Assembly: GCA_964016885.1 (NCBI GenBank)
Contig: OZ024752.1
Location: forward strand, 32,426,001 to 32,490,000
From: Eledone cirrhosa
Lineage: Eukaryota
Direction: 5' to 3'
Length of the DNA: 64,000 nt
Translations under genes and position numbers: made by a program
Shown here: in pieces, positions 52 to 63,182 of the stretch
Position numbering within the stretch: the first letter of the stretch is position 1
Layout of the letters: the number at the start of each line of letters is the position of its first letter
Notes under the pieces: model-generated
The model's input: the letters and a program-made list of their open reading frames with translations, nothing else
Databases searched by the model: none
What the model was told of the DNA's origin: nothing

Positions 52-330
52 AAGTATTGAAGTTTCCGTTGAAAATGGAAAAAGTCATAGGAGTGAAGAG
101 TGCTCTATGTAAGTACCAGAGCTAAATATTTAATGTATAATAAACAATACAATATAATTACCTCATTACCAGAGGTTTCCCGAATAAAACGAATACGAAA
201 GAAACGTCCTCATTCGTTCGTCCGAATTGCCTTGTCCGACGAACGAATGAGGACGTTTCTACCGTATTCGTCTTATTCGGGAAACCTCTGGTAATGAGGT
301 AATTATATTGTATTGTTTATTATACATTAT
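52..330 (-). mobile_element. Fold-back PLE pseudo-LTR-type element in (TA)n
   Basis: Inverted arms at about 131-219 and 237-329, an HHR 3' half (GAAA-cc tct gg-TA), a GCTC/GAGC hairpin at 100-123, and (TA)n on both sides. Confidence 0.7.
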
Positions 331-628
331 ATATATATATTTCGTTTCTGAATTTGTTTAGCAAGATTCTTTATCTGAAAAGGTGTATTGAAACCGATAT
401 TGTTATACTTTGGGGGGTCATGTTGCCAATAAGAAACACACGCACCAGTTGCTTTCACTCCAATCCTCTAAATACTCGGCCACGCGCCTTCAAAATATAT
501 ATGTGTGAGTGTTTATATCAGTTTTCCAAAAGATGTCGACATGAATGGACCTGTTATTTTTATCTAAAGACATTTTTTTTCCAATTCCAACCCGCCCGTC
601 CCTTCAAACTATCTTATTTCTCATTCTT

Positions 629-664
629 TCTTCTGATGAAGGACGAGCGTCCGAAACGTTAAGA
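629..664 (+). ncRNA. Minimal hammerhead ribozyme
   Basis: tctt-CTGATGA-a-ggac gagc gtcc-GAAA-cg-TT-aaga, with palindromic stem III (acgt). Confidence 0.85.
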
Positions 665-882
665 CCCTCTTCCTACTATTTCATGCGTTAACTTAATATA
701 TTCCTTCGAAATACTGTACCGATTGTGTTGTTATATATATATATATATATATATATATATATATATATATATATATATATATATATATATATATATATAT
801 AAAGAACAAAGTGGAGGTGTTGCATAAGACATTCATTGCTCAATCCTGGTTACAAATGTTTCAAATAAAGAAACCTTTATTA

Positions 883-1062
883 TTGGCAGTATCGGTAGAG
901 GGTCAGACGCCATGCTTTGCAGCACAGTTACGTCCCTTTACGAACTGAGTTCAAATCCCGCTGAGGTAAACTTTGCCTTTCATCCTTACGGGGTCGATAA
1001 AATAAAGTACCAGTAATGTACTGGGTAATTGCTGCCGTTGTGCCAAAAGTAGAAACAATTAT
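883..1062 (+). mobile_element. tRNA-derived SINE
   Basis: A box tggcagtatcgg, B box gagttcaaatccc, core tttgcctttcatcct..ggggtcgataaaataaagtaccag, tail agaaacaatta. Confidence 0.85.
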
Positions 1063-1448
1063 TATATACACTCTGCTTTGCATCGAGTGCTGACCTTGGT
1101 ACGCTCACCAGATTTCTTCGGACATACTGAACCTTCTGCGCATATATATACGAGTATATATATTATATTTTATATATACAGAGATAATGTGTGTGTGTGT
1201 GTGTTGTTATATGGAGGGGGGGGGTCATGTTGCCAATAGAAAGAAACACATGCACCATGTAATTTTCACTTTATCTTGTTCGTTTTCACAACGATAATCT
1301 TGCCGAACAAATACATAAACCTATATATATTTTCTATAGTAATAATAATAAATTTGAAGACTAAAATCCAAAGAGGGCTCGATAAGGATAAATATATATC
1401 AAATATATAAGAACCGTAGAGCAAATATTTATTAAAATAACAGATTAA

Positions 1449-1499
1449 AGTTTAAGCAAAGAATCGCTGCTTTCACCCTTAACGGGATCTTCTGAAACT
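1449..1499 (-). ncRNA. Hammerhead-like motif with CAGAAGA (U4A) core
   Basis: Reverse complement: agttt-CAGAAGA-tccc gttaa gggt-GAAA-gca..tgc-TT-aaact. A near-identical copy lies at 58396-58446. Confidence 0.6.
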
Positions 1500-2131
1500 A
1501 AAAAGTTAATCTTTGAACGCAGAAGTAAATATTTCAAAAAACGTTGCAACCGGAGGAAGACAGGAAGACGATACTTTGGTTCGTGGAAACGTTCCCTGGC
1601 AAAGAACGGGAAAGAACGAATATAATACGTCATTAATAGGAGCGGTGAAAAACAATTACGCGCAAAGACAGAACCACGTTTATGGTATAAAAGAGGTCGT
1701 AGACTAATGTTCTCTTAGGTGGTTCATAGAGACGTTCTCTGGCAATGAATGAAAAAAAACGAAGATAATACGTCATATGTGGATCGTGGAGAACAATAGC
1801 ACGCAAAGACAAAACCACGTAAATGGTATAGCAGAAGTCGTAGACTAAAATTCTAACTAGGAGACCGAATGAATCTCCGCTTCAGAGTTAAGAACAAAGT
1901 AAATAAATACAATACAGAAGTAATAGAAATAAATAAATACATACACGCAAACAAATACGTACATACACAAGCATACGCAGAACACTTACCATCGGTATAC
2001 AAAACCACGCACATATAAATATGTGTGTGTGTATGCGTATATACAAATAAATAAATAATTATATAAACGTATATAAATAAATAAATACGTATATAACAAG
2101 CGCACACACATACCTACATGTAAATACACGA

Positions 2132-2805
2132 AATATATATATAAAGTTGTAGTTCCTGTCTGTTTGTTTGTTTGTTTGTTTGTTTGTTTGTTTGTTCACG
2201 AACTCCTCCTATGGTTTTGGAGATAAACCGCCATAACCATATATATTCTGAAACTACATTACCCAGATAACTTGGATAAGTATATTTCAAGGTTCCGCAG
2301 GGACACAAACCCCTTGCTGAAATTTTTACCCTTCGATTTATATGAAATTTAAACCATAGGTAAATGACAGGATATGATAGCTATTTACAAAATTTCAGCA
2401 AATTTCAATAATATTAAGACACCCTAATGGGGGTTAAACTCCCTATAGTGAAAATTTTGGAAACCCATAACTTGAGTATTGGAACCTCTATTATCCGAGG
2501 GTTTTTCTATTAATTAAACGTAAATAAAAAAAAAACACCTTGCTTACCCTTCAGTTCTTCATTAGGACAAAGTAGGAAATATATTTTCAGGTATTTATTA
2601 TGTTAAAAAATAAATAATTAAACTTTGAATTTCTAATTTGAAAATAATGCTTTACACAAAAATGAAATGATCAAGTTTTGAATTGATATTTTGAAAAAAC
2701 ATTTACAAGAAACAAAATAAGAATAAGATTTAATAATGTAATTTTGATTTGATATATTACAAAAAATAATGTTTGAAAAGCAGCAAAGCGCGGGTAATTC
2801 GGCTA
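2132..2805 (+). mobile_element. Non-autonomous Helitron-like element
   Basis: 5' tatatataaag followed by (GTTT)n. The 3' end gcaaagcgcgggtaattcggcta resembles the hairpin-plus-CTRR terminus. Confidence 0.55.
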
Positions 2806-3060
2806 ATATATATATATATATATATATATATATATATATAATCATACACACACACACACACACACACACACACACACACACACACACACACACACACACA
2901 CACATTTATTTTATAGTTTAAGGCAACAACAAACAGATACAAAAAGTCTTATTAGTTTCACGCTATATATGGAAAAGTGGAAAGAATATATATATATATA
3001 TATATATAGTAAAGGAGTCAGGACCCCGACGGCTGAGCTCTGGCCGTTTCGACAGAACCC

Positions 3061-61100: not shown

Positions 61101-61153
61101 GAGCTTCTACAGGACTAGAACTGTTTCATTCGTGAGAAATCATCAGGAAGCTC
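61101..61153 (-). ncRNA. Hammerhead ribozyme (tandem copy 1)
   Basis: Reverse complement: gagcttc-CTGATGA-tttctcacgaat-GAAA-cag ttctagtc ctg-TA-gaagctc, with a perfect 7-bp stem I. Confidence 0.85.
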
Positions 61154-61202
61154 ACGAATGAAACAGAGAAGCTCTTCTATTTTATATATATATAATAGAG
61201 AA

Positions 61203-61255
61203 GAGCTTCTACAGGACTAGAACTGTTTCATTCGTGAGAAATCATCAGGAAGCTC
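61203..61255 (-). ncRNA. Hammerhead ribozyme (tandem copy 2)
   Basis: Identical to 61101-61153. Confidence 0.85.
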
Positions 61256-61734
61256 ACGAATGAAACAGTTCTAGTCCTGCAGAAGCTCTTCTATATTAAA
61301 ACTTGTATACTCTGTTATGTATTGAGTACCTTACTTACTGTGGTTACCTCCGACTCAACCCGGAATAACTTATATATATATATATATATATATATATTTT
61401 TTTTTTTTTTTTTTAATGTTCTACGATGACCTCCCCTTCCCATTTGGGGACAGTGTGAAATTTCTTTTTGAACAACTGCTGGACTTTCAAACTTAGCAGT
61501 CCTTCTAGCACTGATGGAGACCATCGCTGAATATTAATATCAATGTAGTTTGTTATATTGATATTGCCTGGGCATCCACTTATGAGTTATAAGAGCCCAC
61601 CTGCATGGATATCTATGGATTATATGCAAGCTTCTACATAACATGGACATTATTTTAGCACCTTGTAGAAATCTTATAGCGAAACGATTGTATGGAAAGA
61701 AAGAGAGATTTATTTAATTATGTCTCATATAAAA

Positions 61735-61925
61735 TAATTGTTTCCACTTTTGGCACAAGGCCAGCAAATTACCCAGTGCATTACTGGTACTTTATTTTTA
61801 TCGACCCCGTAAGGATGAAAGGCAAAGTCAACCTCGGCGGGATTTGAACTTAGATCGTAAAGGGACGTAACTATGCTGGAAAGCATGGCGTCCGTCACTC
61901 TACCGATACTGCCAATCCACCGCCC
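61735..61925 (-). mobile_element. tRNA-derived SINE
   Basis: Full-length reverse complement. Confidence 0.88.
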
Positions 61926-62129
61926 TTGTCTCATATAAAATAATGCATCCAACTATCCACGAAATTCAATATAGTTAGCACCCCGAACGCATACATGGGA
62001 TTATACTCAGGTATATCCTAATGTTTGTTAAGTGAGATGGGAGTTGGTCGGAGTATCGCTAAAAGCTTTCTTTGTTATTGTATTAAATATATATATTATA
62101 TATATATATATATATATATATATATATAT

Positions 62130-62400
62130 TAATGAAGTATTTCCGTCGGAAAGGTACAGGAAAAAAGAGTGCTCTATGTAGGCTACAGAGCTTATTAGTT
62201 ATGTAATAAACAATATAAGATAATTATTTCATTTACCGGTGGTTTCTTGAAGGCAGATGATGTGTCTGTCTTCAGTCGTCAGTGAATAAATAACATATTT
62301 ATTTATTCATTCTGACGACTGAAGATAGACACATCATCTGCATTCAAGAAACCACTGGTAAATGAAATAATTATCTTATATTGTTTATTACATGACTAAA
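62130..62400 (-). mobile_element. Fold-back element with two head-to-head HHRs
   Basis: Arms at about 62195-62292 and 62300-62398, with a GCTC/GAGC hairpin at 62169-62192. Confidence 0.8.
62306..62366 (+). ncRNA. Hammerhead ribozyme; inverted copy at about 62227-62286
   Basis: ttcatt-CTGACGA-ctgaa..ttcaa-GAAA-cca c tgg-TA-aatgaa, with a perfect stem I. Confidence 0.78.
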
Positions 62401-63025
62401 TATATATATATATAGAGAGAGAGAGAGAGAGAGAGAGAGAGAGAGAGAGAGAGAGAGAGAGAGAGAGAGAGAGAGAGAGAGAGAGAGAGAGAGAGAGAGA
62501 GAGAGAGAGAGAGAAATATATATATATATGTATATATATACACACATAGACATACTCGTACATAGACACACATTTATATGTAGATTTGTTTTTGTGTATG
62601 TACATGTGTGTGCGCGTGCGTGTGTGTGTTAATGCCTCTAATAATAATCATGATTACCAAAACCTATCTATTCCTCTATCATAATAAATAAGTCATGAAC
62701 CTTTTGCTCAATATAATTTATTATATGTCTCTTTGCCGACCACAAACTAAGCCATTTAACCAATTTTATCCTCATGAATCATCATCATACCCGTTGACCA
62801 GTCTTCGGTAATCACAAACAAACATGGCTTCCTTCTTCTTCCTTACACACTCACCAATAATCACGTGCTATTTTCGATTCTCATAAATGTTTGCAATCTT
62901 TAAAATCTTTACAATTTCACACACGTTGTATTTACTTGGTATTAAATAAACATATTTGTGTATATCTCTCCCTCTCCCTCTCTTATATATATATATATAT
63001 ATATATATATATATATATAGATGAG

Positions 63026-63072
63026 ATTCTACAGGACTAGAACTGTTTCATTCTTGAGAAGTCATCAGGAAT
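63026..63072 (-). ncRNA. Hammerhead ribozyme (family of 61101)
   Basis: Reverse complement: attc-CTGATGA-cttctcaagaat-GAAA-cag..ctg-TA-gaat. Confidence 0.75.
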
Positions 63073-63182
63073 GAAGCAGTTCTAGGTCCTGTAGAATCTC
63101 ATCTATATTAAAACTTTTATACTCTGCAATGTATTGAGTACCTTACTTACTGTGGTTACCTCTGATTCAACCCGGAATAACG

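Follow-up and report, generated by a model that had tools for sequence, protein, structure and literature searches.

Hairpins and Penelope-like elements in the window

The window, a 64,000-nt stretch of the Eledone cirrhosa genome (contig OZ024752.1, positions 32,426,001 to 32,490,000), has a GC content of 28.9%, is rich in (TA)n arrays, and carries a remnant of a Penelope-like element (PLE) of the Hydra clade together with short insertions bearing a bulged hairpin; the host genome measures 3.0 Gb, and its repeats may be of an octopus-like kind. The initial annotation of this stretch had described a covarying RCTC-loop-GAGY stem at the 3′ end of unrelated hammerhead ribozyme (HHR) families, about 35 to 60 nt ahead of the terminal (TA)n, as a possible signal by which the PLE protein positions internal initiation of reverse transcription. 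Our analysis supports a conserved, covarying stem-loop tied to the ends of PLE insertions but reverses its geometry: two such hairpins exist (HP1 and HP2), and each junction lies a few nucleotides upstream of one of them. The hairpin first described is HP1, which is carried inside the known PLE tail, and the order of features in the parent elements is HHR, UA site 1, HP1, UA site 2, HP2, and AUG.

The parental remnant is an open reading frame (ORF) at positions 3037 to 4647 (+), truncated at its 5′ end and frameshifted, with reverse transcriptase (RT) and C-terminal GIY-YIG regions. It is assigned by similarity to family F1, being 91 to 94% identical to the intact 719-amino-acid (aa) ORF of that family at locus L010; Pfam and PDB sequence searches gave no name to the RT fragment in the window. 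F1 has many intact, near-identical copies in the host genome, and in the sampled sequence 49/59 of its matches terminate at a TA run, as expected of (TA)n insertions. The L010 protein, encoded by a single ORF with an RT and a VIY..YIG segment near the C-terminus, contains the RWR, DKT, and C-N-C-X5-C marks of the Hydra clade, which is described as having a C-terminal GIY-YIG domain, RW[KR], DKT, and CxCX5C motifs, (TA)n targets, a hammerhead in the pseudo-long terminal repeat (pLTR), and a tail at one end (Craig et al. 2021, PMC8557442). Residues R37, W38, D117, K118, and T119 are conserved across protein alignment A2, the near-invariant R35, R37, and W38 lie in a long N-terminal helix, and telomerase RT is the nearest match to the predicted fold of the L010 protein, the alignment beginning at residue 1 (Z 18.2, root mean square deviation 4.4, 298 residues).

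Canonical hammerhead cores occur in families F2, F3, and F4 and in many loci outside the host, whereas F1 shows a hammerhead-like fold by eye and 0 canonical cores in its cluster. The first core strand of that fold (L010:3270-3170, −) departs from CUGANGA, although F1, the most abundant family, has many intact and near-identical copies. The tandem unit of F1, about 3.5 kb as judged from match spacing, exceeds the size of under 3 kb that is stated as a tendency for Hydra elements (PMC8557442). In the window, the F1 match stops near position 4647 and joins the pLTR of a different family, F7 (3037 to 5131, +; HHR core at 4930); the join was found at that place in 0/29 other F1 loci and is possibly a template switch. 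As for the supposed unrelatedness of the motif-bearing families, two have been traced to Hydra-like ORFs (F1, through L010, and L177), and the shared motif suggests that the remaining ones belong to the Hydra clade as well.

All 16 hairpin sites listed in the initial annotation are present on their strands, several of the listed coordinates marking the 3′ arm. F1 contributes a head-to-head insertion in (TA)n at 22793 to 22993 (a long end with HP1 at 22845 to 22870, −, plus a short end) and another at 46544 to 46744 (short on the left, long on the right, where HP1 occupies 46667 to 46692, +). Both F2 insertions, at 61193 to 61372 (HP1 at 61309 to 61329, +) and 63015 to 63184 (HP1 at 63121 to 63141, +), are head-to-head with a short left and a long right end. 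F3 is represented head-to-head at 42064 to 42520 (short left; long right with an HHR core at 42331 and HP1 at 42435 to 42456, +) and at 51152 to 51575 (long end with HP1 at 51210 to 51231, −, plus a short end), and F4 at 62129 to 62399 (long end with HP1 at 62169 to 62191, −, and an HHR core at 62243 to 62282, plus a short end). A further head-to-head insertion, at 23183 to 23371, is short on the left and long on the right, where its HP1 (23301 to 23325, +) belongs to the one family with a single-U bulge.

The other listed sites are HP1-type hairpins at 100 to 122 (−; G-C closing, 50 nt before a TA run, E 2e-6 with covariance model R1), 1070 to 1090 (+; 3-bp inner stem and UC bulge, missed by R1), 1375 to 1422 (−; long loop, family F5), 6378 to 6400 (−; F4, with a canonical HHR core upstream), 22698 to 22719 (−; UUCG-capped inner stem), 42594 to 42621 (+; in a tail-only insertion), and 50988 to 51009 (−; HHR core upstream at 51060 to 51082), plus an HP-type hairpin at 17546 to 17564 (+; G-C closing, 72 nt before a TA run). 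Four sites are additional to that list: a decayed F1 HP1 with a mutated 5′ arm (6051 to 6082, −), a long-loop, hairpin-like site with a weak inner stem (21968 to 22009, +), an HP2-type hairpin of an F1-related family that resembles the L010 HP2 (22555 to 22578, +), and a decayed F4-like hairpin (58299 to 58333, −). Model R1, built from 52 hairpins outside the host genome, at E ≤ 5 recovers 14/16 of the listed sites in the correct orientation, 11 of them at E ≤ 0.1, and gives three further window copies and one doubtful hit. The expected spacing to the terminal TA run holds at 10/16 sites (41 to 53 nt) and fails at the others, with 62 to 73 nt at 4 and no run within 130 nt at 2; likewise, the expected upstream HHR, taken as a canonical CUGANGA..GAAA core on the same strand within 160 nt, accompanies just 5/16. 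The insertion at 42551 to 42690 and one at L134 are tail-only, have (TA)n on both sides, and start a few nucleotides before the hairpin.

Definition and enrichment of the motif

The 4-bp motif first proposed is no commoner than chance: in 654 kb of sequence, made up of the window and 59 sampled stretches, bare RCTC..GAGY occurs 696 times, against 718 in the reversed sequence that served as control. Its enrichment is positional (99 versus 37 at 40 to 69 nt from a TA run) and becomes general once the complete structure is specified, namely, RCUC, an inner stem, a U-H bulge on the 3′ arm, and GAGY-RC. Requiring the bulge U, the following RC, and the inner stem leaves 75 matches versus 4 in the control, and in a larger sample of 1.054 Mb the full motif is found 118 times versus 7 in a control, or 89 versus 0 when a TA run lies 30 to 95 nt downstream. 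The loop, previously thought to vary freely, holds a second covarying stem of 2 to 5 bp and a conserved U-H bulge.

Genome-wide, counting forward-strand sites with a downstream TA run (reverse-strand counts, inflated by repeated offsets, were not used), there are 53,867 motifs with A..T closing versus 332 for the reversed-pattern control and 5,151 with G..C closing versus 51. The mismatched forms number 493 versus 54 for A..C and 2,817 versus 295 for G..T, many of the listed G..T rows coming from one family whose inner stem starts with identical letters. A genome-wide pattern for double hairpins (709 forward versus 200 control) was set aside, as its listed rows are nearly all one 58-bp satellite. 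That satellite, at C1:14234976-14242347 (L095 to L119), comprises more than 100 units, each with the F1 HP1 hairpin; at 14.198 Mb of the same sequence there is a 53-bp array whose core is similar.

The compensatory exchange of A-U for G-C at the closing pair is borne out in the host, where 29 tail clusters divide into 19 with A-U, 7 with G-C, 0 with A-C, and 3 with other combinations, but weakly beyond it: G-C closes 78/87 cores of the family set described below, and A-U is a feature of the host genome. Because the closing pair outside the host is almost always G-C, the switch is weak evidence across phyla, and the inner stem is the stronger evidence.

Inner stem and covariation

Pairing within the inner stem was scored from anchors that ignore the inner bases, comparing registers 0 to 4 with shuffled controls. 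Only the register with a 2-nt bulge pairs: inner positions i1, i2, and i3 are Watson-Crick in 78/87, 54/87, and 45/87 cores, versus 45, 26, and 22 after shuffling (p 0.0002), and registers 0, 1, 3, and 4 gave no pairing signal in the pooled set. The bulge begins with U in 87/90 anchors, though U was not required, and the preceding pair is present in 81/87. In short loops the 5′ arm is misaligned in MAFFT alignment A3, which was therefore excluded from the pair counts and served for model R1 alone.

Mapped onto a 51-protein tree, every one of the six changes at HP1 i1 is a joint U-A/C-G swap (permutation p 0.003), compared with 2 to 3 for slid partners and 0 across hairpins; HP1 i2 also changes jointly (p 0.017), and HP2 i1 is almost invariant C-G. 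Among the host tail clusters, where only i1 was required, i2 pairs in 25/26 and i3 in 23/26, with G-U at i2 in 7 clusters versus A-C in 1. The two arms of a hairpin are separated by 8 to 110 nt.

Two hairpins per element across animals

A protein alignment of 55 sequences led to 77 metagenome loci (kept from about 470 candidate stretches) and 16 genome-contig loci, of which 89 were analyzed after exclusion of 4 weak bacterial hits. Dereplication at 80% N-terminal identity gave 57 families (55 outside the host plus L010 and L177; one locus appears twice), and hairpin cores were counted in the 47 families with at least 160 nt of untranslated region (UTR), nearly all from other animals. Twelve Hydra-like PLE loci (L274 to L285) sit in contigs labeled as bacterial genomes and are probably host DNA in the bins; a search of a viral contig set for relatives found none.

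Two or more cores are present in 31 of the 47 families. HP1 lies 80 to 145 nt and HP2 19 to 73 nt before the ATG, the two mostly 57 to 75 nt apart, with hammerheads at about −170 to −220. The intact F1 element fits this plan, HP1 standing in its 5′ UTR and HP2 starting 78 nt later, about 70 nt before the ATG, and the second autonomous family, L177, likewise has two hairpins, whose arms are split by insertions of about 70 and 110 nt. L177 has many near-identical intact ORFs. Outside the ORFs, sense-strand matches number 73 upstream and 40 downstream and antisense matches 4 and 5 (some being nested or tandem double counts), and inside them the motif occurs once in 152 kb.

Among the published consensus sequences, as excerpted, the motif is present in Hydra-2_Amil (from a coral), in Hydra-1_Ajap (from a sea cucumber; two copies), and in Hydra-2_Ajap, and a diverged form occurs in Hydra-1_Crog (from a copepod); Hydra-1_Obim and Hydra-1_Amil offer no clear match by eye in the same excerpts. 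An origin of the motif in a coding [IV]E[YHC] peptide, which the initial annotation had itself named as an alternative, was checked and is refuted. Positioned upstream of the ATG, the cores have GAG in frame with it in 16/87 and in the other frames in 35 and 36, an in-frame upstream ATG exists in 0/16 of the in-frame cases, and coding is therefore excluded, barring a spliced upstream ORF; in addition, HP1 translates into other residues in the frame of the L010 ORF. Among the excerpted Hydra examples from publications, GAG is never replaced by GAA.

Ends of the insertions

That PLE insertions have a tail on one end only was known (PMC3846280, PMC8557442); what is new is the tie of each insertion end to a hairpin of its own. 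Among the 49 TA-bounded copies of F1, 18 end at −5 of HP1, 24 at −3 of HP2, and the remaining 7 at other positions, for the most part with 3 nt of microhomology. The other host families show a short-end class near HP1 and a long-end class 60 to 100 nt further on, their HP2 being unseen, and tails in the host measure about 55 to 140 nt. Insertions with two ends of the same family (n = 44) combine a short and a long end in 40 cases, two short ends in 3, and two long ends in 1 (p 8e-9 versus 50%). Two of the three cases with two short ends sit in local duplications of the window; these duplications, 102 and 152 bp long, do not form HHR arrays in head-to-tail order. TAT or ATA is found at −9 to −2 before 58/80 hairpins, versus 19/80 control positions further upstream. 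In other animals, ends fall at −6 to 0 of HP1 or HP2 in 18/81 rows, and the remaining rows are mostly cross-family or TA-run matches to one reference.

Two results of this survey were set aside or limited: apparent F177 ends inside the long loop of HP2 were disregarded as matches to simple TA-like sequence, and in family F10 the script called no hairpin.

Other features of the window

At 19332 to 20232 (+), the window holds pieces of another retrotransposon without long terminal repeats (non-LTR; Pfam zf-RVT, E 3e-8). Tandem arrays occupy 40035 to 41665 (82-bp unit), 43577 to 45836 (74/98 bp), 47684 to 48884 (12 bp), and 59802 to 60615 (40 bp). Scanned against Rfam, the window yields 830 matches; the best 150 of these are sub-threshold microRNA models on repeats or palindromes and throw no light on the motif.

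Proposed role of the hairpins and alternatives

A close point of comparison is the Poseidon element PAc, in which two internal RT starts bound the tail, both target strands are nicked, and RNA 3′ of the starts is needed (Frangieh et al. 2024, PMC11167929). Poseidon agrees with the scheme proposed below for Hydra in its two starts bounding a tail, its AT-rich target, and the nicking of both strands, and its protein is predicted to form a dimer; it differs in belonging to another clade, in having its sites inside the ORF, and in that no repeated binding motif has been identified for it in the text excerpted (PMC11167929). By eye, the Hydra core is not visible in the stretch of Poseidon RNA displayed there (PMC11167929).

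From sequence comparison, we judge it likely that each hairpin binds the element's RT and that copying would start at U/A-rich bases a few nucleotides upstream, one hairpin serving each strand. The hairpin marking an end lies outside the DNA inserted at that end and therefore acts before insertion, on the template or an intermediate; the long end is probably set by HP2, itself not copied. The internal starts, two-strand nicking, and 3′ RNA requirement of Poseidon together argue for a hairpin-bound protein that would present the UA site to a nicked (TA)n primer. Two protein molecules would load on HP1 and HP2 of a read-through (tandem) transcript, a (TA)n tract would be nicked on both strands by their GIY-YIG domains, and each of the resulting ends would anneal to the UA site just 5′ of a hairpin. 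One cDNA, starting before HP1, would then yield the short end without a tail; the other, starting before HP2, would yield the long end, with a tail containing HP1; and the two, meeting head-to-head, would produce palindromic insertions. The wider proposal, that a duplicated TAR-like bulge loads two RTs on one transcript, that an insertion consists of two converging first-strand cDNAs, and that the ~100-nt cassette is a complete, portable start signal, is tentative, and we hold it to be slightly less probable than its negation.

Several observations weigh against this reading. With respect to conservation, one core is found in 12/47 families and none in 4/47; patterns for HP2 of F2 and F4 gave 12 and 5 matches, which are local duplications or neighboring insertions, so that no HP2 was found for either (F3 lay outside this pattern search). 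On the protein tree, HP1 i3 and HP2 i2 and i3 are not significant (p 0.16 to 0.62), and independent contrasts at HP1 i1 number just 3 to 4, all concordant, which cannot reach p < 0.05. Outside the host, G-U and A-C are nearly balanced (10 versus 8), and antisense folding of the helix equals sense folding (0.81 versus 0.77); pairing outside the host is therefore neutral as to strand and as to RNA versus DNA. With respect to the ends, the offset of the short end varies among families, from about −13 to +1 of HP1, and in other animals at least five same-family copies end elsewhere than at a hairpin. Five insertions of family F7 show paired ends separated by 56 nt, yet neither the tail nor the sequence after the short end contains a canonical hairpin (copies at 32326 to 32845 and 341 to 464 [−] of the window and at L052:4078-4447); in one longer F7 copy, a canonical hairpin follows the long end by 8 nt, and a third end is present. 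Clusters C11 and C12 (12313 to 12520 and 22185 to 22409 of the window; L141 and L079) are (TA)n insertions with two ends 33 nt apart and without the motif, and they may belong to another clade. Lastly, the first start of Poseidon lies inside an AC-rich stem-loop, a different geometry (PMC11167929).

A first alternative retains the junctions but moves the hairpins into DNA, where, in cDNA or unwound target, they would guide the GIY-YIG endonuclease (EN), a longer intermediate being cut a few nucleotides upstream of HP1 or HP2. It predicts an identical junction map, the helix folds on either strand, and G-U and A-C are nearly balanced outside the host; moreover, Craig et al. ascribed the tail to EN-mediated resolution (PMC8557442), and the Drosophila Penelope tail is needed for EN recognition (as cited in PMC11167929). 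Against this, the arms are 8 to 110 nt apart, and a duplex DNA site is therefore excluded, the excess of G-U over A-C in the host favors the sense strand over cDNA, and Poseidon initiates reverse transcription internally in vitro (PMC11167929). We regard a DNA guide as unlikely.

Second, the hairpins could be stop signs, at which an RT self-primed on an antisense transcript halts just before HP1 or HP2, much as at the telomerase template boundary. Self-priming on an antisense template has been proposed for head-to-head PLE structures (PMC3846280), the protein has a telomerase-like fold, and the ends lie right at the helix base. The conserved bulge U and the G-U bias are sense-strand features, however; the junction's enrichment in UA accords with a nicked (TA)n end as primer; and exactly one short plus one long end would not readily result, which together make halting of this kind improbable. 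To the same low degree we credit a third possibility, that the hairpins are control or packaging sites of the 5′ UTR (for translation or ribonucleoprotein assembly) while the ends are set by adjacent UA sequence or otherwise. The position of HP2 shortly before the AUG would fit such a function, as would the formation of two ends by F7, C11, and C12 without a canonical hairpin after each, but the offset of a few nucleotides is fixed at both hairpins across families with unrelated spacers, and the ends cluster at two points even though UA-rich sequence is common throughout the UTRs. Conservation through the coding peptide (RTN-GAG-YRC does translate as [IV]E[YHC]), or through shared descent or chance, is scarcely credible given the enrichment of the full motif and the reading frames reported above, notwithstanding that the bare motif is not enriched and that the published file contains Naiad and Chlamys consensus sequences in which such an 8-mer stands without a hairpin by eye (11/15 places shown).

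Relation to known RNAs

The bulge has parallels in two RNAs, 7SK and the TAR of HIV. In 7SK, an arginine sandwich is formed at A39-U40U41-G42-A43, with the triple U40:A43-U66, and in TAR at A22, with U23:A27-U38 (Pham et al. 2018, PMC6189040). The R-U-H-G-A of the Hydra hairpin matches this pattern (PMC6189040): by sequence, a bulged pyrimidine follows a paired base and is succeeded by G-A paired to U-C. The arrangement differs in that the 3′ arm carries the Hydra bulge, the stem is closed by the GAGY helix (a circular permutation), and an unpaired RC follows. The next pairs match GAGC/GCUC of TAR. Recognition may employ an arginine-sandwich bulge with a U.A-U triple, and the helix bearing the invariant R35/R37/W38 may do the reading; this last is the weakest step of the scheme, a guess to which, if the rest holds, we give an even chance.

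RT-bound RNA structures that fix where copying starts or stops are familiar from the telomerase template boundary element, the R2 3′ UTR, and hepadnaviral epsilon. Those positioning RNAs are single, whereas the Hydra element is duplicated, lies 3′ of each start, is uncopied at that end, and is proposed to serve two priming events. The non-LTR retrozymes are short, non-coding HHR derivatives of PLE pLTRs that are thought to be moved by PLE proteins, and no cis signal is described for them in the text excerpted (bioRxiv 10.64898/2026.07.22.740005). Retrozymes consist of tandem HHR repeats with a type I hammerhead per unit, whereas the elements of the window are mostly single or head-to-head insertions. 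Craig et al. report tails of 30 to 40 nt for Hydra elements, shorter than those in the host, and the main text of that paper does not contain the word "hairpin," nor was a description of the motif seen in it (PMC8557442); the word is likewise absent, by keyword, from PMC4209133 and PMC13282606. More broadly, no description of the motif or of paired hairpins at PLE ends was found in searches of the open-access literature, a coverage that leaves aside most subscription papers, Repbase, Dfam notes, the supplementary figures of Frangieh et al. and Craig et al., and the retrozyme supplements.

Significance for Penelope-like elements

PLEs are the sister group of telomerase, and the choice of their start sites and the one-ended tail are standing questions. 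Where the sole biochemical study found two internal starts and no defined signal, the hairpin offers a short motif tied base by base to both ends and conserved across cnidarian, echinoderm, and mollusc-like hosts. It also provides an annotation marker for non-autonomous Hydra derivatives, a single strand of the host genome containing at least about 59,000 Watson-Crick sites. The paired hairpins would explain the long-known tail on one end of PLE insertions, and, if the proposal is true, the cassette would account for more than 100,000 palindromic insertions in the host genome as well as for the tail and the inverted pLTR. Should the reading of the bulge be confirmed, a retrotransposon would join the few RNAs that use an arginine-sandwich bulge.

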